Source: a virus (lineage: Duplodnaviria; Heunggongvirae; Uroviricota; Caudoviricetes). From it: a stretch of DNA of 34,373 nucleotides. How positions within the stretch are numbered: the stretch's first letter is position 1; the number at the start of each line of letters is the position of its first letter. Both the position numbers and the translations under genes were made by a program. Under the pieces are notes generated by a model. The model saw only the letters and a list, made by a program, of their open reading frames with translations. It was not told where the DNA came from and made no database searches. The stretch spans positions 1 to 34,373 of IMG/VR virus record IMGVR_UViG_2713896907_000006. One strand, 5' to 3'. Positions 1 through 34,373 of this stretch are shown here, piece by piece.

Positions 1-141
1 TTACTGCTTACACTGTAAGAACGCCGCAAACTCCGCTCCCCAGAAGCTCATCCGTATTTCACACAGCGAACCGTGCAACATCCAGATGATGAGGATTGCC
101 GTCACACAGAACGTGATGGCCGTAAGCGATTTTTGCGACAT
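1..141 (-). CDS. Hok/Gef-family type I toxin (46 aa membrane peptide)
   Basis: Reverse-strand translation MSQKSLTAITFCVTAILIIWMLHGSLCEIRMSFWGAEFAAFLQCKQ: single hydrophobic helix followed by the LCEIR motif and C-terminal AAF segment typical of Hok/Gef peptides. Stop codon is the first three bases of the window. Confidence 0.65.
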   Translation of the reverse strand: MSQKSLTAITFCVTAILIIWMLHGSLCEIRMSFWGAEFAAFLQCKQ

Positions 142-883: not shown

Positions 884-3055
884 CTATTTTAAGCTAATTG
901 TTGCATCTCTTAAATAATATTTTTTCCCATCTGCAATGCTCTTAAGTACAGCTTGAATGCGAGTCGGATGCTTTGAAATATCTATGTTTTTAGCTTTATT
1001 TCTAACCTCATCTACATCAAGTATTTCCCCGAAATAATGTTCGTCAAAAATAACATAAGGGCCATTCGTTGAATCTCTACCAGTTTCACCAATAATTTCA
1101 CACAATCTAATTATGCCATCTTCTGATAAGATGGAAGCAAGAAATTCTGATGTGAATTCAACAGAGATTCTCTTTAATTCGAAAAATATATTTGATTCTA
1201 GATGATAGTCAAAAAATATTTTTTTATTTAAAGCAATAGTAGCTGTTTCTTTGAAGGTATTCTCAAGTTCAACAATCTGATCTTTATTAATCTGTATATT
1301 ACTTGAGTTTCGTACGTTGTATAGTACTTCTGCTCCAAGTGGCGCATTCTCATATCGACCAATAATTTTTTTTATTAGCTCATATTGCTCACTACTTTTA
1401 GATATAATTTTATCAGTGAGCCAATACATCCTTCTATAAGGATCTTCTCTAATGAGACCATAGTTTTTTTCTAATGAAGATTTTAACTCTTGAGAGAAAA
1501 GAAATCTATCATAAATGCACGTTAATATATTAAAACTATCAACTTTACAACAAGCGTCTGTATAAATATTCATCATTTCGAAAAATCTTTCCTCGGCATT
1601 TTGAGATAACACATCCTCAAGGAATTTTTCTCTATTAATTTTCCCTTCGATGAAAAGAAGAATGTCATGATCGGAAATATATCCTACTGGAGTTTTAAAA
1701 TGAAGGGCAATATGAAGTCTTTGGGGGGCAGAAATTCTTCCTGCTGCATCTGAGTCAGATACATCATAAGGATAAGATTGATTGGGGCGTAGAAGAGGGA
1801 AAATATACTCTAATAGCCCCTGCATCAATGTACGTTCTCGTTGAGAAAAAATATTTAGTTTATTGCATCGTTCATGGCTATAATGCTCTATAATATCTTG
1901 ATGTTTATTCATTAACAAATTATTGATGGTTAATCTATTCCCAATGTACGCTTCAGGAGTATTCTTTATATGCTCATAAATTAAATTTGATTTGGTTGCG
2001 ATTAGAGATAAAGAAAAAAGATCTGAAGAACACACCTGACCTTTAATTTGCTCTAAAGTAAATCTCAAGTGGTTGAAAAACCTTTTCAACTCTCTTGGAT
2101 TATTAATTAATTGCTTGAAATAATTATGGTAAATCCAATCTAATCTTTCTTGATCTTTTTCAAATTTATCAGTTAAAAAACTATCACCTAGTTTTTCAAA
2201 CTCTGAATTTGCGATTTCATTCAGTCCTCTTTCTGAAATTACGGGAAGTGAAACTCGAAGTTGAACAATCTTATTAATATATTCTGACGGATTTATAATG
2301 TTATTTTTATCAAGCACAGAAATTAGGTAATTAGGATCAAATGCAAGTAAAAAAGAAGTGCCTGAGAAATTCGCAACAGCTTTGACTAACCGTAAAACTT
2401 GAAAAGCCTCAGAGGGTGTTAAACGATCAATATCATCAATTATTACAATTATAGGATGTTTTATTTTTTTTATCGCATTAGCCACTTGTTTTTTTCTATC
2501 TAAAAGATCAAGTTTTTTTAACTCAGCTATTTTTTTAGTAGCATGTCCAAAGCTTGAAAGAGATTTTTCTATGATAGATGCCCATGGTTCTGCTCCAGGG
2601 ATAAGTTTAGCAGCACTAAAGAGGCTAGAGTATGCAATTAGCTCTTTTGATACTTTTAATGCAACTTTTGATTTGTCTTTAATATTTAGTTGTGAAGAAA
2701 ACTGCAATAAAAAATCTTGAATCAAGGATTCAGGTTGGCCAGCCAACCATGGATTATATTCTATTATAATGGGTAAGGAGTCCTTTTCATTTAAGGCATT
2801 TTTTATAAGATTTATGACTGACGTTTTACCATATCCCCACTCAGCCTCTATAGATACAGTGAAACAATCATCGTCGTTATTTAATAGTAAAATATTTGCC
2901 AAATTATTTGCAAAAGTAAGTCTATTTAGTAAGTCTGGATCATTTTGACCGCCTAGTATAGGTTGGTCATTATGATATGCTCTCATTTTTAAACTCATCC
3001 ATTTAAATAAAGCAATCATAGAGATGTTGCTATTAATATTATAATATAGCCACAA
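884..3055 (-). CDS. KAP-family P-loop NTPase (about 700 aa), accessory cargo gene
   Basis: Walker A-like AEWGYGKTS, Walker B-like IIVIIDDIDRL, and the KAP-typical NPRELKRFFNHL motif, followed by roughly 370 aa of unassigned C-terminal sequence. The gene and both flanks are strongly AT-rich compared with neighbouring phage genes. True start is probably an internal ATG near 2986. Confidence 0.8.
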   Translation of the reverse strand: MWLYYNINSNISMIALFKWMSLKMRAYHNDQPILGGQNDPDLLNRLTFANNLANILLLNNDDDCFTVSIEAEWGYGKTSVINLIKNALNEKDSLPIIIEYNPWLAGQPESLIQDFLLQFSSQLNIKDKSKVALKVSKELIAYSSLFSAAKLIPGAEPWASIIEKSLSSFGHATKKIAELKKLDLLDRKKQVANAIKKIKHPIIVIIDDIDRLTPSEAFQVLRLVKAVANFSGTSFLLAFDPNYLISVLDKNNIINPSEYINKIVQLRVSLPVISERGLNEIANSEFEKLGDSFLTDKFEKDQERLDWIYHNYFKQLINNPRELKRFFNHLRFTLEQIKGQVCSSDLFSLSLIATKSNLIYEHIKNTPEAYIGNRLTINNLLMNKHQDIIEHYSHERCNKLNIFSQRERTLMQGLLEYIFPLLRPNQSYPYDVSDSDAAGRISAPQRLHIALHFKTPVGYISDHDILLFIEGKINREKFLEDVLSQNAEERFFEMMNIYTDACCKVDSFNILTCIYDRFLFSQELKSSLEKNYGLIREDPYRRMYWLTDKIISKSSEQYELIKKIIGRYENAPLGAEVLYNVRNSSNIQINKDQIVELENTFKETATIALNKKIFFDYHLESNIFFELKRISVEFTSEFLASILSEDGIIRLCEIIGETGRDSTNGPYVIFDEHYFGEILDVDEVRNKAKNIDISKHPTRIQAVLKSIADGKKYYLRDATISLK

Positions 3056-10515: not shown

Positions 10516-11235
10516 ATGTTAATAGTTTCTGTACTACGTTGCGGTAAGGATTTTACGCCAAAGCATGCACAATGGCTTCATAAACAATTTGGCTCAATGC
10601 CATCAGTCTGCTTAACGGATGCTGGATATATTGATGGAGTGGACACTGCGCCATTGTTATTTGATTGGCCTGGTTGGTGGTCAAAAATGGAATTGTTCAA
10701 CCCCAATCATCCAGTAATTGGAAATCATGATATTTTATATTTTGATATTGATGTTGTTATTACAGGAAAATTAGATGCTTTTGCAAAGGCTAAAAACTTC
10801 ACCATGCTTAGGGAGTTTAATCATCATGGGCGAGTTAATTCATCAATTATGATGATCCCAGTATCTGCAAAGCAAAAAATATGGGATGCCTTTACTGCCA
10901 ATCCTGAGGAGATAATGCAAGAGTGTCGAACTGAAGATAAATGGGGAGATCAAGGGTTTATTGGTAGCATAACAAAACCTGATTTGTGGCAGGATATTAT
11001 TCCTGGTGCAATTAAAAGTTATAAGTGCGATATAGCAACAAAATCAATGATTGGATATAACCCAGATCTCGCATCAAAATCAGCAACAGGAAAAATACCT
11101 AATGGTGTTTCGGTTGTATGCTTTCATGGTAGTCCGCGCCCTTGGCGTACTGGTTTTAAATGGGTTCCATCTTTATCGTTAAAAGACTCTCTCTATGGCA
11201 AAGTAAAAAATCTAAAATTAAAGATTAAGCGTTAA
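10516..11235 (+). CDS. Hypothetical protein, AT-rich moron at the P2 Z/fun-equivalent locus
   Basis: 239-aa ORF in a markedly AT-rich segment between the tail operon terminator and gene G. No family recognised with confidence; contains a hydrophobic strand followed by FDIDVV, a DxD-like arrangement that could indicate a GT-A-type nucleotide-sugar transferase. Confidence 0.7.
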   Translation: MLIVSVLRCGKDFTPKHAQWLHKQFGSMPSVCLTDAGYIDGVDTAPLLFDWPGWWSKMELFNPNHPVIGNHDILYFDIDVVITGKLDAFAKAKNFTMLREFNHHGRVNSSIMMIPVSAKQKIWDAFTANPEEIMQECRTEDKWGDQGFIGSITKPDLWQDIIPGAIKSYKCDIATKSMIGYNPDLASKSATGKIPNGVSVVCFHGSPRPWRTGFKWVPSLSLKDSLYGKVKNLKLKIKR

Positions 11236-25070: not shown

Positions 25071-25546
25071 CGCGCTTCGCTTGTCTGCTGCTTCGCCTGG
25101 GCATAAAAAATTTATGCCCCGACTCTCCAGCTCCTGTATCAATCAGATAATTTCACGACGCCTTCCAGCTTATTGCCATCATCGACGGTCAGGCTCTTAC
25201 GCAATCCCACCGCGTTGACTGCATGTTCCTGCCGCCTCAGTGCGATTTTGGCGGCCTTATCTGTTCAAAAGCCCTTACGTCTTTTTCACACTCAGCGTGA
25301 GAAATACAGCCATTCTGTTGTGTCGCTGCGACATCGTTCAGGGAATGCTATTTACCCCCTGAAACGCGGGCTGTTCCCCCGTCACCTGCGCGCAGAAAAA
25401 ACGCGTTTTTTTGTGCATGCACGGATCCTTGACGGATCCAGCCGCCATGCGGGCCGGAAGGGCAAAAAGTCATTCAAAAAAATTGTGCAAATTTGTGCAC
25501 TATTGTGCATTGAAATAAACGCCCTGGGGGAGGGCGTTTTGCTCAT
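25071..25546. other. Non-coding region expected to contain cos (not pinpointed)
   Basis: In P2 cos lies between Q and the accessory tin/old region. This gap contains a 9-bp hairpin (25099-25119), AAAAAACGCGTTTTTT and GGATCC-TTGAC-GGATCC palindromes, three phased TTGTGCA repeats and a GC hairpin. No exact P2/186 cohesive-end sequence was recognised. Confidence 0.4.
25483..25509. repeat. Three direct TTGTGCA repeats spaced exactly 10 bp apart
   Basis: TTGTGCA begins at 25483, 25493 and 25503. Confidence 0.8.
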
Positions 25547-25810
25547 CTATTTATAGCCCTGCCCCTTACTGGCCAGCGCCCTGATGGCAGGGCGTGCCAA
25601 CACCATATTTTGGCAATGATGAATTGCCCGGCAAAATTCATCTCTACCCATTGGATGCTCAACTGGCAATGTTAAATACAGGTTCCATGCATCGCCTAAA
25701 AGTTGGGCTATCTTTTGTTCTTCAGATGTCAGCAAGCAAGCGGTATCCGTAAAATAATCATACTTTTCATGTATGTTATTTAACGGCTTTTTCTTAGTGG
25801 TATCGGTCAT
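25547..25810 (-). CDS. Hypothetical small protein (87 aa)
   Basis: ORF translationally coupled to the upstream gene; contains an HP...EF...IH..Q pattern. No confident family assignment. Confidence 0.55.
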   Translation of the reverse strand: MTDTTKKKPLNNIHEKYDYFTDTACLLTSEEQKIAQLLGDAWNLYLTLPVEHPMGRDEFCRAIHHCQNMVLARPAIRALASKGQGYK

Positions 25811-26121
25811 TGAGTCAACTTAATAGCAAATACTTTTACTGGCTCTGGTCCAAAATGTGGATGTGTTATCACCTTGATCTCATATCCCCCATATGGAACA
25901 TCAATTCTGCGGCTTAAATCGTCGCGTTTCGGATACCCCTTAGTAATAATCAATCGATCATAGCTCTTATCCAATATACGGCGAGACCAGTATGAATTAA
26001 CCAGGCGATACTCTTCCGTTTTCTCTCCGCGAATCATGGCATCGAAGTATTCACCTTTGACGGCAAGTTGCAGGTTAGCCACGGTTAACCTCCTGCGGCG
26101 GCTCTGCAGCAAAATACTCAA
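25807..26121 (-). CDS. ASCH/PUA-like domain protein (DUF3850-like)
   Basis: LAVKGEYFDAMIRGEKTEEYR resembles the N-terminal signature of ASCH/DUF3850 proteins; about 100 aa. Confidence 0.55.
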   Translation of the reverse strand: MSILLQSRRRRLTVANLQLAVKGEYFDAMIRGEKTEEYRLVNSYWSRRILDKSYDRLIITKGYPKRDDLSRRIDVPYGGYEIKVITHPHFGPEPVKVFAIKLTQ

Positions 26122-26407
26122 TACCTTTATCCCAGATGGATTTTATGGTCGTCCATGTGACTGGTACTTTAATTTCAATTCTCCCGCTCCCGTCACAGGT
26201 TTCGCAATCATCATCGCCAAAACATTCCGGGCAGTTTATAAACGTAGTTTCTGAAAACTCACCGGATAGCACACCCTTAGCGCCGTTCTCAACGGTTAGT
26301 CTCCTCGGTACCATAACCCAACCATCTGGAGTTACCGGAGAGTTGCCCGATGGCGCGTTCAACTTGGTGATTTTACGTTGTAACCATTCTTTGGTAATGG
26401 TGGACAT
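26075..26407 (-). CDS. Small zinc-finger protein with DnaJ-type CxxCxGxG motif
   Basis: Start at the ATG at 26407 preceded by AGGAG; contains CPEC...CETCDGSG. 110 aa. Confidence 0.6.
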   Translation of the reverse strand: MSTITKEWLQRKITKLNAPSGNSPVTPDGWVMVPRRLTVENGAKGVLSGEFSETTFINCPECFGDDDCETCDGSGRIEIKVPVTWTTIKSIWDKGIEYFAAEPPQEVNRG

Positions 26408-26421
26408 AGTTGCTCCTGTTT

Positions 26422-26736
26422 TCACTCCGGGAAAAACGCTTGAATATTTTTTTTCATTTGTTGCATGGTTCCTTCGCTGTTCGTTGCTGATTGTGTTGTT
26501 TTTTCTGGCTGTGCTGGCAGTAACGACATCCTGATTTCGTCTTCTGACCATTCTGCCAGCGAGTACGCCAGAGCGGGGGCTCGTTTTATGAGTGACAGTC
26601 CGGCCAAAAAGGCCGCGCGTTGTGCGCGGCTGCGTTCTGAGGCTGGCAGGCTGTCTAGGTAACTGCACGCCTCCTGCTCACTCTTGACGGCGGCTGGCTT
26701 CAGATAGAAACTTATCCGCCTGGTTGGTGTGGTCAT
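26422..26736 (-). CDS. parR: ParR-like partition adaptor (plasmid R1 ParR/StbB family)
   Basis: MTTPTRRISFYLKPAAV...LDSLPASERSRAQRAAFLAGLSL aligns by eye with R1 ParR (RRTIAFKLNP...LDSIPQGERSRLNRAALTAGLAL). Start codon overlaps the parM stop. Confidence 0.8.
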   Translation of the reverse strand: MTTPTRRISFYLKPAAVKSEQEACSYLDSLPASERSRAQRAAFLAGLSLIKRAPALAYSLAEWSEDEIRMSLLPAQPEKTTQSATNSEGTMQQMKKNIQAFFPE

Positions 26737-26740
26737 TGGT

Positions 26741-27700
26741 TTACTCCTTGTCCATTGCGTACAACCCATTAACCAGAGCAAACTGTGGCACTCCGTCCGC
26801 GATGAAAGTCGCATTAACTCCGCAGGCTTCGCGGATAGCGGGTGCCACAATCTCCGCCCCTCCACCGACAACCATCACCCGCCCGTAACCGGAAAAACCC
26901 GCCAGCGCGCGGATCACGCGTTGTTTCAGTGTTTCTTCCTTTTCACGAATCACCGCCATCAGGCTGGCGTAATGCGCGTCATTGTGGATGTGCTGGCGCA
27001 GCCAGGCTTCATCGTGGCGATGTTCGATAATAGTATTGGCGATGTGGTGACTGGTGCGCATACCGTTAGTGGCCATCACCGACAGTACGGCATCGGCCAT
27101 CAGAGAAACGCCTACGTGTGGATCGCAAAACACCTGGCTGATACCTGCCAGTTGCCCCTGAACCTTTGCCACATCCAGCGTGGTTCCGCCCAAATCCACA
27201 ATCAGCAGGGATTCAAACGGACTCATGTCAGCCAGTGCTTTAAAGCCAGCCGGAATGGATTCAGGCATAACCCGCACGTTACGGATAGTGAATGCCTCAC
27301 CGTTCTGGTACTCCACCGGGCGCATGACGTTCGCTTTTTTGCGGTTGATGTTGGCCATGTCCGGCTGTGCGTTTGTGTCGAAATATTCGCTCAGTGGCAG
27401 GGTGACAACCACATCTACTTCCTGTGGTGTGATGCCTGATTTGACCAGTGCGTGGTGAATGGCGATTACATTCACATCGCTGTACTGGTATTGCGTGTCG
27501 GTCGTCTGGACAAAGCGATCGCTGACCGGATCAAAACCATAGCGCACGCCATCAAGCATGTAGTTCGCAGGCTGCGAGCCACCGAATGGCGCAGACCATT
27601 CCGACTTGAAGCTGTTCGGGCTGATGGCGTTGCGGCGTTCGCCGTTCTCACTCCATGCCAGCTTGATGTTGGTGGAGCCGTCGTCGATACAAATTTTCAT
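26741..27700 (-). CDS. parM: ParM-like actin-type partition ATPase (plasmid R1 ParM/StbA family)
   Basis: MKICIDDGSTNIKLAW...ISPNSFKSEW...YQYSDVNVIAIHHAL...VMPESIPAGF...LLIVDLGGTTLDV...VMVVGGGAE closely parallels R1 ParM along the whole length. Confidence 0.9.
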   Translation of the reverse strand: MKICIDDGSTNIKLAWSENGERRNAISPNSFKSEWSAPFGGSQPANYMLDGVRYGFDPVSDRFVQTTDTQYQYSDVNVIAIHHALVKSGITPQEVDVVVTLPLSEYFDTNAQPDMANINRKKANVMRPVEYQNGEAFTIRNVRVMPESIPAGFKALADMSPFESLLIVDLGGTTLDVAKVQGQLAGISQVFCDPHVGVSLMADAVLSVMATNGMRTSHHIANTIIEHRHDEAWLRQHIHNDAHYASLMAVIREKEETLKQRVIRALAGFSGYGRVMVVGGGAEIVAPAIREACGVNATFIADGVPQFALVNGLYAMDKE

Positions 27701-27730: not shown

Positions 27731-27840
27731 GTTTACGGGATTCTGAAATCCCGCTTTTGCCTGTTTTGTGCGCGCTTCATATTTCGCGGCGCGTTTTTTG
27801 CTCATTTACGGGATTTGTGAATCCCGTTTCTGTCTGTTTT
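27731..27840. repeat. Two copies of an approximately 40-bp element, each containing a CGGGATT-N4-AATCCCG hairpin followed by a T-rich tract
   Basis: Copy 1 hairpin 27736-27753, copy 2 hairpin 27809-27826; both are preceded by TTTACGGGA and followed by CTGTTTT. They straddle the gene A stop codon, just upstream of parM. Confidence 0.75.
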
Positions 27841-30599
27841 TTGTTCCCACGGGTCAGGCCACCCCGCAGCAGGTCTGCTTTGCGGTTGGCGCGTTCAGTG
27901 GTTTCACTGATTCTCTGTGCGTGCTCTGCGTCACGGATGGCGCGCAGCATGTCAGAAAGCACGGTAACGGGGGTTTTTATGGTGCTCTGGTCCTGCTGAA
28001 GTGTGGATGCCAGACGTGCGGCGGCTTCGGGGTCTGATGCCCCCAGTTGTTCCAGATAGCTGGCGACCGGGTTATGGCGGATCTCTGTGCTGCTTACGCC
28101 GTGATTACGGCTCAGGCGCTGCCAGAGCTGCGTGATTCGGCTGTCCGGGCGGGTATCCGGTTTGCGTACAATTTCAAATCCCTGCGGTGCAATGATGCTG
28201 CCGTCAACGTACAGACTGCCGCCCCGTAACAGGTGCTGCATCTGCTGTTCACCGATATGCAGGCCGAGAGATTCAGCAGACTCCCGCCATTCTTTAGCGA
28301 GTAACTCGTGGTTATCAGGCAAAGGCTGTGGCTGTTTGCGGCTCTGTGTCCAGTTCTGCATTTCATCACTGCTGTTTTTTGCCTGTTTGTCACGCAGCGA
28401 ACGCATCAGCGCCCGGCGTTCGTGCCGTTTCAGTGAGCGCATCCATTCATCCACATCAACGCCGTCAGGAAGCTGCGGCCACGGTGCTGGCCGTTCTTCC
28501 GGCTGTTCTGTCCCGTTGTTGTCCGTTTCCTGTACACGGGGACAGTTATTGCCACGAGTCCAAGGGGCGGCAGGGCCGCCCTGAAGGTCAAAACTATTTT
28601 CGTTGGCGCTGTCTTCCGCTTCCGGTTTACGTCTTACCAGCTTCCAGTTATCCGGGTGCGTGCACACGCGGGAAGATTCCCCGATTTGTGGCGACCAGAT
28701 CCCGTAAATCTGTACGCTTTGCTCGCCGTAATCGTTCAGCTCTTCTGCGAGGTCGTAGGCGGTGCGAATCAGGTAATCCTTGCGTGGAACAAGTACGCCA
28801 CCCTGTTTCTCAATGTAGGTGGCAAAACACCCGGCATCAGCGGCAGCAAGTACCGCATCCATTGCGTCATTTTCCAGACGTTGTGGACCTTCCGGGTTGC
28901 GGGCCATCTGACTGGCAAGGCGGCGGAGTTCACGCCATACCTGACGGGAGGGGATACCAAAGAACTGGAACTGGCGGACGCGGTGAAGGCGCGCCCAGCC
29001 GATGGCGCGTTCCACGCTCTCGGCCATTGATTTTCCGGTTTCGTGATCAACGCGTGGCTTGCCTGTTTTCGGGTCAATGCCATCCACGGCGCGGCTGTCC
29101 AGGTTCTTTCCGATGTAGGTGGCGATGTAGCTGGTCGGCGTACCTTTTGAACCGTCGACGTACTCTGCCTTAAAGCGCGGAGTTATGTCATTGCCCAGCT
29201 CGTGGCGGTCTTCGCGAATGGCAATATCACGGGTGATGTCCACGATGCTGTCGATTTCTTCAGGATGTGCAAAGACCATCATGTGCCAGTGCACGGTGCC
29301 GTCATGGTGTGGCTCCACCGTGCGGATGCCATACCAGCGCAGGCCGTCGCGATTCAGTTTTTTGCGGACCGCCTTAAAAAAAGTGTTAACCAGGTAATCA
29401 CTGGAATCGCGCATGGTGGCGCCGTTCCATTTGGGATTCGGATGACCGTTCTCTGTTGTAGCGTGGTATTTTGACGGGCAGGTGACAGTCAGAAACACCG
29501 CTTTGTCGCCACGGGCTTCGGCCAGAAGTTCCAGTCCCTTCATGGTGGCCATCATTTCTGCCTTACGGTGGACCGGGTTACTTACTCCCGCGTAATACAC
29601 CGTCTCGAGATCAATCGTGAACCCGTCTTCATTTTCCAGCATGAAACTTTTCAGGAAATCGCGTGTTTTCTCGCGCTGTGCGCGAAATTCACTTAATGCG
29701 TCCTGACTCAGATAGGGTGATGTTTTTCTGGAAACCAGACAGGCAGCGCGGAGTTGTTCCTCTCTCCATTCGCAACGTAAAAGCCACAGTTTGCGTTTCC
29801 ACCAGTCCGCACAGGTCAGGCGGAGGATTGCACCCGGCAGCAGTTCCGTGTCCGGTTCGTTCTTCCGGTCTTTGTCTGTTGTCAGTGCGTCATAATGCGG
29901 CGGCACTGTGTGCAGATGTAACGCCATGCGGGCCAGCATCTGATACGCCTTCAGCGTTATATCCATGGTCAGCTCGCCGTCGGTCGCGCCACAGCCATCG
30001 CAGAGTTTTTCGAAGGTGCTGCTGAACATCGCCGCTGTCATGACGGCCAGCGTCTGTATCTGGTGCTTGTTGAGCTGTGGCAGGTACAGCAAATCGTCCA
30101 GACGTTCACGTCCGGCAAGGGAGCGATAACCCGGAGTCAGCCAGCGACGGTCGGTGCGGGCCAGACGTTCGAATATTTTGCGCAGGGTTCCGCGCGCATA
30201 GCGTTCCGCCTGCCAGCTCTTTTTGCCTTTCTGGCGGTCAGATTCCTGTTTTTTGCGCAGGAAAGAGAGATGGCGGATAAGCGGATCACGCAGATAGGAC
30301 GGCAGCAGACGCAGTGCGGCAATTGCTTCATCCACCGCACCTCGTGCCTGCTTTCTGGCTTCTCTTGCCAGTGTGATGGCTTTGTCCTGTTTTTCCTGTG
30401 CGTCCAGGCTTTTATTAATCAGATTGCCCAGCGGTGCAGCGGAGAACGCCGCATCAGCCATTTCCTGGCGGCGCTCGTTCTCTGCCCGGTAGGCATCCAG
30501 CCAGGAAGAAAGAAGGGAGGGGCGGACAGGCTCCCCCGTTCCCTCGCGACCGACTGCACAGCGTGGTTGTTGCCAGTCTCTGATGTACTCCGTTGTCAC
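27777..30599 (-). CDS. A: Replication initiation endonuclease gpA (rolling-circle HUH nickase family)
   Basis: Contains HHDGTVHWHMMVF (HUH-type motif); largest early-region ORF, in the position of P2 gene A. At 940 aa it is longer than the P2 and 186 A proteins as I recall them. Confidence 0.85.
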   Translation of the reverse strand: MTTEYIRDWQQPRCAVGREGTGEPVRPSLLSSWLDAYRAENERRQEMADAAFSAAPLGNLINKSLDAQEKQDKAITLAREARKQARGAVDEAIAALRLLPSYLRDPLIRHLSFLRKKQESDRQKGKKSWQAERYARGTLRKIFERLARTDRRWLTPGYRSLAGRERLDDLLYLPQLNKHQIQTLAVMTAAMFSSTFEKLCDGCGATDGELTMDITLKAYQMLARMALHLHTVPPHYDALTTDKDRKNEPDTELLPGAILRLTCADWWKRKLWLLRCEWREEQLRAACLVSRKTSPYLSQDALSEFRAQREKTRDFLKSFMLENEDGFTIDLETVYYAGVSNPVHRKAEMMATMKGLELLAEARGDKAVFLTVTCPSKYHATTENGHPNPKWNGATMRDSSDYLVNTFFKAVRKKLNRDGLRWYGIRTVEPHHDGTVHWHMMVFAHPEEIDSIVDITRDIAIREDRHELGNDITPRFKAEYVDGSKGTPTSYIATYIGKNLDSRAVDGIDPKTGKPRVDHETGKSMAESVERAIGWARLHRVRQFQFFGIPSRQVWRELRRLASQMARNPEGPQRLENDAMDAVLAAADAGCFATYIEKQGGVLVPRKDYLIRTAYDLAEELNDYGEQSVQIYGIWSPQIGESSRVCTHPDNWKLVRRKPEAEDSANENSFDLQGGPAAPWTRGNNCPRVQETDNNGTEQPEERPAPWPQLPDGVDVDEWMRSLKRHERRALMRSLRDKQAKNSSDEMQNWTQSRKQPQPLPDNHELLAKEWRESAESLGLHIGEQQMQHLLRGGSLYVDGSIIAPQGFEIVRKPDTRPDSRITQLWQRLSRNHGVSSTEIRHNPVASYLEQLGASDPEAAARLASTLQQDQSTIKTPVTVLSDMLRAIRDAEHAQRISETTERANRKADLLRGGLTRGNKKQTETGFTNPVNEQKTRREI

Positions 30600-33380: not shown

Positions 33381-34373
33381 ATGAGCATAAAATCAATTCC
33401 GGGAGGTTATCTTCTTGACATGCGTCCAGAGGGGCGCAAAGGCAAGCGCATTCGCAAAAAATTTAAAACGAAATCGGATGCAGTTTTATATGAGCGGTGG
33501 GTGCTGGCGCAACAGCATAACAAGGAGTGGAAAGGAAACTCTATTGATCGCCGTCCTCTGTCAGTGCTTATTGAATTGTGGTGGAAATATCACGGCCAGT
33601 TAATGAGGTCAGGGCATAACACGCGTCTTAAATTGCTGCGTCTGAGTGAGGCAATGGATGACCCGTGCGTGCATAAACTTAATACAACGATGCTCACCGA
33701 GCTACGTGTGTCCAGGATAGAGCAGGGGATACAGCCCAGCACCATTAATCGAGAGATTGGGGCGTTAAGCGCGATGTTTACTGCACTCATCTCATCCGGC
33801 CATTTTCTTAACGATAACCCCGTTCAAGGCCTTAAAGGAATGAAGGTTAACGAGCGCGAAATGGGATATCTGAGTAAGTCTGAATGTGTTCAGTTGCTGG
33901 ATGCACTGGCTGAAAATCCCGATGAACAGCTGGCTGTCGAAATCCTTCTGTCGACCGGGGCGCGATGGGGCGAGGTAGCGGCACTGGAGCAGCGCCGTGT
34001 TCTTCATTGTCGAATCACTTTTTCAAAAACGAAGAACAGCAAAAACCGTACCGTTCCTATTTCTGAAAGCCTGTTTGAAAAGATCAAAAAACGGGGCGGG
34101 AAACTGGTTTTTCCGACGCTGGATTATCCATTGGTTCGCGATGTCATCAAAACGGTCGCATCTGATGTTCCCGACGGCCAGGCTGTTCATGCGCTGCGCC
34201 ACACCTTCGCCAGTCATTTCATGATGAACGGCGGCAATATTCTGACGCTCCAGAAAATTCTGGGGCACGCAAAGATTCAGACAACGATGATTTATGCCCA
34301 TCTTGCGCCGGATTACCTGCAGGATGCGGTGAGATTTAATCCCCTTGGAGATGCCTTATATGAAGCCTCTTAA
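33381..34373 (+). CDS. int: Tyrosine integrase (P2 Int family)
   Basis: MSIKSIPGGYLLDMRPEGRKGKRIRKKF... parallels the P2 Int N-terminus; C-terminal catalytic region with HALRHTFASHF and an LGHAKIQTTMIYAHL tyrosine motif. Start is the ATG at 33381, not the upstream 33231 in the ORF track. Stop codon is the last three bases of the window. Confidence 0.9.
   Translation: MSIKSIPGGYLLDMRPEGRKGKRIRKKFKTKSDAVLYERWVLAQQHNKEWKGNSIDRRPLSVLIELWWKYHGQLMRSGHNTRLKLLRLSEAMDDPCVHKLNTTMLTELRVSRIEQGIQPSTINREIGALSAMFTALISSGHFLNDNPVQGLKGMKVNEREMGYLSKSECVQLLDALAENPDEQLAVEILLSTGARWGEVAALEQRRVLHCRITFSKTKNSKNRTVPISESLFEKIKKRGGKLVFPTLDYPLVRDVIKTVASDVPDGQAVHALRHTFASHFMMNGGNILTLQKILGHAKIQTTMIYAHLAPDYLQDAVRFNPLGDALYEAS

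Follow-up and report, generated by a model that had tools for sequence, protein, structure and literature searches.

What use a plasmid-type actin segregation machine could be to an integrating phage is the question raised by this locus. We found no report in which this has been tested, either in general or for the ParM/ParR pair (ParMR) of P88-type phages. The window, that is, the whole 34,373-nt stretch of DNA that was analysed, has a hok gene (1-141, minus strand) at one edge and, at the other, a tyrosine integrase gene whose stop codon is at 34373; no host flank is present within it. The element belongs to the P2-like phages and, among these, to the P88 type (genus Xuanwuvirus). Across gpA, parM and the structural genes, its nucleotide identity to P88-like genomes was approximately 95%, and a number of segments have been replaced; compared with P88, several morons are different, as is the region of the integrase and immunity genes. 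The P88-type gene order (gpA, parM, parR, a variable region, cos and the portal gene) was present. The original prediction had listed an integrase, a C repressor and a Hok-like toxin at the edge of the element, and all three were recovered, the repressor as an HTH protein, together with Ogr.

The parM gene (26741-27700, minus strand) encodes an actin-like segregation ATPase of 319 aa. Both ParM domains of Pfam were matched end to end, StbA_N (PF06406) with E 3.8e-82 and ParM C-terminal (PF21523) with E 1.3e-68. The protein also matched structures of R1 ParM (PDB 1mwk, E 5e-93). Identity to R1 ParM was 47% over 318 aa, and the nucleotide-binding motifs DDGSTNIK, MPESIPAG, DLGGTTLD and GGGAE were kept in the R1 alignments. 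At the amino acid level, ParM was 99.4% identical to P88 gp17, above the 95% that was taken to define the P88-type phage ParM.

The parR gene (26422-26736, minus strand) encodes a ribbon-helix-helix adaptor of 104 aa. Its start is the ATG at 26736, 4 nt past the parM stop codon and preceded by an AAGGAG ribosome-binding site. The ORF listed at 26422-26871 is over-extended and was rejected as parR. The protein matched Pfam Plasmid_stab_B (PF10784, E 1.6e-24) and, over its full length, the PHROG family ‘partition protein’ (phrog_2515, E 8.6e-46), and there was a weak match (E 0.0065) to the pB171 ParR structure 2jd3. An N-terminal RRISFYLKP strand and a C-terminal N..F motif are common to this protein and to phage and plasmid ParRs, and the C-terminal residues N97 and F102 were invariant among 10 of them. 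No match exceeded the cut-offs of NCBIfam. Profile searches had been named beforehand as a possible refutation, and they placed both proteins in the ParM/ParR families. Because ParM matched both Pfam domains and the R1 structures, and ParR matched PF10784 and phrog_2515, the R1-type pair that had been predicted in a P2-like phage at 26422-27700 is confirmed, with exact coordinates.

ParMR in P2-like phages is already known. It is common, annotated and published, and its recovery here is a re-discovery and not a new system. In GenBank and PHROGs, P88 gp17 is labelled ‘plasmid segregation protein ParM’ and gp18 ‘partition protein’, and a dozen related phage records are labelled likewise. P88 (gp17/gp18), phiSM, 520873 and P884B11 have the same genes in the same place, and the upstream boxes described below are kept in them. 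Such a system has been reported in roughly one in four P2-like phages of E. coli, with plasmid maintenance as its suggested role (Rousset et al. 2022, PMC9122126). The module is lacking in P2 itself and in some three quarters of the P2-like phages (PMC9122126), and it is therefore not essential for this phage type. To this we add gpA-linked homologues in other genera, an account of the selection on ParM, the mosaic structure of ParR and a candidate two-box cis site. The module resembles R1 ParMRC in the ParM family, in the Pfam family of its ParR, in the parM-parR order and in having a cis site upstream of parM. However, R1 is a theta-replicating low-copy plasmid, whereas the window element is an integrating rolling-circle phage.

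The genomic location of the relatives bears on whether the pair serves an extrachromosomal life. The module was found in 1303 of the 5426 complete E. coli genomes, so that a prophage with this module is present in roughly one in four E. coli genomes. It occupied 1441 chromosomal and 2 plasmid places. Relatives of the window's integrase and repressor region at 98% identity were chromosomal in 300 out of 300 places, next to btuC. The DEC5B prophage, which adjoins btuC, carries gpA-parM-parR. In the STEC316 relative, which has another integrase, the prophage adjoins pdxB, and lysogens of phiSM have been shown experimentally to be integrated at pdxB (PMC6456863). No plasmid-type Rep was found in the window, where gpA was the only replication initiator found; the early-region ORFs matched DUF4761, DUF4754 or MarR-type HTH proteins, or had no match. 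Given these chromosomal counts and the lack of a plasmid Rep, stable plasmid life is not the normal state of the P88-like phage group, as judged from the relatives. Of the original prediction, the R1-family pair in a P2-like phage therefore stands, while the phage-plasmid lifestyle that had been built on it is not supported.

That lifestyle would have ParMR keep the phage as a stable low-copy episome, instead of or besides integration. It is suggested by the presence of a complete partition pair and a hok toxin, and by a single PLSDB record among 72,556, a small circular copy of 34,461 bp (NZ_CP148288.1, pZ1323PEC0009-2). This record holds a whole P88-like phage, and its junction is without host DNA. 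However, its origin lies exactly at the att boundary, as is expected of an excised-prophage assembly node. The record therefore does not show stable maintenance, and it was not accepted as evidence for an episome; either such an assembly node or a rare episome is behind it. The other small record, a 26.7-kb Shigella ‘plasmid’ match, was also rejected as an episome, being a linear piece of a prophage that is disrupted by IS1. Among P2-like phages, Burkholderia KS14, with RepB and ParA, is a true plasmid prophage (PMC3091744). KS14 shares with the window element the combination of P2-like virion genes and a partition function. Unlike the window element, which has gpA and a tyrosine integrase and whose relatives are integrated, KS14 is a demonstrated plasmid with RepB and a type I partition system. 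The StbA-type ParM of phage D6 was 47.8% identical to that of the window, and was grouped with the plasmid members of the ParM family, outside the gpA-linked clade. We take D6, with 91 kb, to be a P1-like phage-plasmid. On balance, maintenance of the P88-like phages as episomes by ParMR is unlikely, and the other possibility that had been raised at the outset, DNA positioning during replication, is the better reading.

The immediate neighbour of the pair points in the same direction as that second possibility. The rolling-circle replication endonuclease gene gpA (27777-30599, minus strand; Pfam Phage_GPA, E 1.8e-129) has parMR directly downstream. In all the P2-like relatives examined, gpA preceded parMR in the same orientation. 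The two were directly adjacent in most of them, with one or two small genes between them in the Hafnia and Enterobacter loci. The STEC316 prophage (locus L004, 1-30250) had the same int-C-cox-gpA-parMR early arm and a different tail module, its late-gene set including DUF2586, DUF2590 and another tape measure, and its ogr adjoined the portal gene.

A scan of contigs with exact peptide words recovered only three close loci, and the distant relatives came from the protein database. The nearest plasmid ParM was only 52.6% identical to that of the window, and the plasmid and phage collections held no ParM between 52.6% and 95% identity. Intermediates with 54-63% ParM identity were found in the protein database, in Plesiomonas, Hafnia, Serratia and Enterobacter. 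Each of those examined was part of a P2-like prophage, was located downstream of gpA and was followed by a ParR gene. After parR, these loci carried changing cargo (an unknown ORF, HicAB or a KAP NTPase, the latter directly after parR in the Enterobacter relative), followed by ogr or the portal gene. Among ParM homologues at 49-50% identity, one was found in a conjugative element and one in an integrated plasmid. In an NJ tree, constructed without bootstrap, the phage-context ParMs clustered together and separately from R1. The search for ParMR in other P2-like genomes that had been proposed was thus successful, with findings ranging from P88-like phages to several other genera. Since the gpA-parMR synteny was kept across genera while the cargo changed, the module travels with gpA. 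Judged from gene order, ParMR behaves like a component of the replication backbone rather than like cargo of the hotspot.

The two genes have diverged to different degrees. Estimates of dN/dS against seven relatives were 0.02-0.09 for ParM and 0.13-0.22 for gpA in the same pairs, and purifying selection on ParM is by this measure very strong. ParR was more diverged but still constrained (dN/dS 0.14-0.29), with 53-84% identity to the relatives and saturated dS (0.65-1.6). The P88 ParR was only 53% identical to that of the window, with the first 18 residues, including RRISFYLKP, being identical. A recombination break was located within parR near position 26682, where the variable stretch starts. 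The parR allele of the window had no match of at least 90% identity in the 5426 complete E. coli genomes, and 42 of these genomes had it at 80-90% identity. These patterns indicate that parR is an allelic mosaic and that the window allele is a rare one. The P88-type parR segment was found in 744 places in 661 genomes, with up to three per genome. We had considered allele exclusion between co-resident prophages, that is, partition incompatibility. As the same allele is co-resident in single genomes, there is no sign of it, and it was rejected.

The mosaic nature of parR could also be understood if the pair were cargo of the gpA-portal hotspot, with ParR and/or ParM interfering with plasmids or related phages, or acting as an anti-phage system. 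The pair is indeed within the interval that was defined as a P2 defence hotspot by Rousset et al. (PMC9122126). In addition, parR is highly diverged next to a nearly invariant ParM, and the variable region begins within it. However, the synteny with gpA is kept down to 54% ParM identity across genera, and it is the cargo after parR that changes. The low dN/dS of ParM, the coexistence of the same parR allele within single genomes and the difference between the phage boxes and the 11-bp TATCTC iterons of plasmids also argue against it. A search with PADLOC gave zero matches for ParM, ParR and the three ORFs downstream. We consider a hotspot cargo function of the pair distinctly unlikely.

Two candidate ParR boxes of the form GGG-N10-CCC were identified upstream of parM, both on the minus strand. 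The proximal box, CGGGATTTCAGAATCCCGTAAA (27732-27753), is located in the gpA-parM spacer and begins 52 nt upstream of the parM ATG. The distal box, CGGGATTCACAAATCCCGTAAA (27805-27826), is located within the 3′ end of gpA. It begins 125 nt ahead of the ATG, and the distance between the two boxes is 73 bp. A 39-nt direct repeat, D1, is present in two copies at 27732-27770 and 27805-27843, also spaced by 73 bp. Each copy contains CGGGATT-N4-AATCCCGTAAA, and a search of the window with this pattern gave two exact matches against 0.03 expected. The GGG-N10-CCC motif occurred only five times in the whole 34-kb window.

Both boxes were kept in five E. coli relatives, and the proximal one in P88, pZ1323, 569R5 and STEC316 among them. 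Equivalent boxes were found at -131 and -59 from the parM start in Plesiomonas (spacing 72) and at -128 and -55 in Hafnia (spacing 73), making the box positions similar in three lineages. The Serratia/Enterobacter branch had another layout, with inverted arms of 14-20 nt that are 26-28 nt apart. R1 parC is a 2x5 array of direct 11-bp iterons flanking the promoter, whereas the window has two palindromic boxes. In the 220 bp upstream of parM, no 6-mer was repeated three or more times, as would be seen in an R1-type iteron array. In plasmid-type loci, the sequence upstream of parM did contain such arrays, made of 11-bp TATCTC iterons; TATCTC was present six times in locus L016.

The boxes were also considered as RNA hairpins or terminators. 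The E. coli boxes fold, and on the plus strand they also score as terminator-like hairpins, which counts against a role in ParR binding. In the Plesiomonas boxes, however, the outer GGG/CCC alone is kept and internal complementarity is absent. As their inner bases are not self-complementary, a protein-binding site is a better reading than an RNA hairpin, and the latter was rejected. It is possible that the boxes secondarily stop antisense transcription. From their position and conservation, we infer that ParR binds the two boxes.

In the 76-bp gap between gpA and parM, neither a minus-strand terminator-like site nor a sigma-70 consensus promoter was detected. It is therefore plausible that parMR is reached by read-through and is co-transcribed with gpA in the early lytic operon. 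Just downstream of the proximal box stand a conserved ATTAATCAA motif and the ribosome-binding site of parM. An autoregulated internal promoter like that of R1 parC would fit this arrangement, which could suit a role in the repressed lysogen. In this role, ParR would be an autoregulator and the target of the pair would be the host chromosome or the integrated prophage locus, or ParR would be a transcription factor only. Against this stands the failure to detect a sigma-70 consensus promoter at the proximal box. Such a role would leave the tight linkage to gpA unexplained, and we know of no benefit from pushing integrated sister loci apart. It is thus highly improbable. That the module is no longer active and is left over from an old recombination between plasmid and phage could be argued from the frameshifted or truncated copies (ParM is broken into four pieces in phage 503458, and about a fifth of the database ParM sequences of the P88-type kind are truncated, as estimated from cluster sizes), but with both ORFs intact, very strong purifying selection and the module kept across genera, this is effectively refuted.

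Since the module is common in chromosomally integrated phages, it is most likely a transient DNA mover and not a plasmid device. We therefore favour, with somewhat better than even confidence, a functional type II (ParM/ParR) module that moves, positions or segregates free phage circles for a short time. ParR dimers would bind the two GGG-N10-CCC boxes; with 7 helical turns between them, these would be on one face of the DNA. ParM-ATP filaments would then capture the ParR-box complexes via the conserved C-terminal motif of ParR. Free circular copies of the phage genome would be pushed or positioned in this way after infection or excision, during gpA replication. The benefit might be a wider distribution in the cell of the templates for replication and packaging or, alternatively, a copy for both daughter cells ahead of integration; the module would not be a permanent plasmid maintenance device. 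As there are two boxes compared with the 10 iterons of R1 parC, filament capture may differ from that of R1. A wider proposal, that ParMR is a part of the gpA module in a whole clade of integrative Enterobacterales P2-like phages, and that its two-box centromere positions rolling-circle genomes, is put forward tentatively, and we would place it a little short of even.

A functional analogy to this transient role is provided by AlpA and AlpC of the prophage CGP3 in Corynebacterium glutamicum, an actin-like protein and its adaptor which, like the window pair, are encoded in an integrated element. The CGP3 adaptor binds its own upstream region, the system is induced early, and both proteins are required for efficient replication of the phage DNA (PMC4446434). 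The analogy is only functional. The host phylum and the phage type are different, and the role was shown experimentally in CGP3 whereas here it is deduced. If transient positioning by ParMR is correct, these phages would offer a Gram-negative, genetically tractable counterpart of AlpAC, an R1-family ParM that works without an iteron array and a simple two-site centromere for the study of ParM capture. Cytoskeleton-assisted genome positioning has been described for jumbo phages and for CGP3. It would extend to ordinary temperate coliphages if ParMR organises replicating phage DNA. If occasional episomal persistence were the case instead, the view of P2-like lysogeny would change.

The interval after parR contains three small ORFs on the minus strand (26075-26407, about 25807-26082 and 25547-25810), which are variable cargo of the gpA-portal hotspot. 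They matched phrog_60, phrog_625 and phrog_13916, and had zero Pfam matches. The phrog_60-matching ORF (110 aa) has a zinc-finger-like motif, CPECFGDDDCETCDGSG, and the phrog_13916-matching ORF (87 aa) falls under a PHROG label of ‘DNA ligase’. A hairpin with a T-run (inverted repeat I14, 25517-25539) follows the three ORFs. Neither P88 nor pZ1323 had a match to the segment of the window between 25800 and 26682.

A ParM locus of the E. coli type, with 97% identity, was found on a 226-kb contig in a record titled Vagococcus sp. WN89Y. This is a Gram-positive assembly, and the locus is probably a contamination. In NZ_CP148288.1, an extra methyltransferase and Com pair was present beside hok. At 884-3055 (minus strand), the window encodes a 723-aa KAP-family P-loop NTPase (Pfam PF07693, E 3.3e-47), the N-terminal half of which matched the PADLOC PifA model (E 1.4e-64). 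It is located in an island of 31% GC between ogr and gpD, a segment missing in P88 and pZ1323, and is likely to be an anti-phage moron. Between gpU and the tail-fibre assembly gene, a patch of approximately 40% GC holds an ORF of 239 aa (10516-11235, plus strand). This ORF had zero Pfam matches but matched the PHROG glycosyltransferase moron phrog_1962 (E 2.6e-77), and its product may modify the O-antigen or a receptor.
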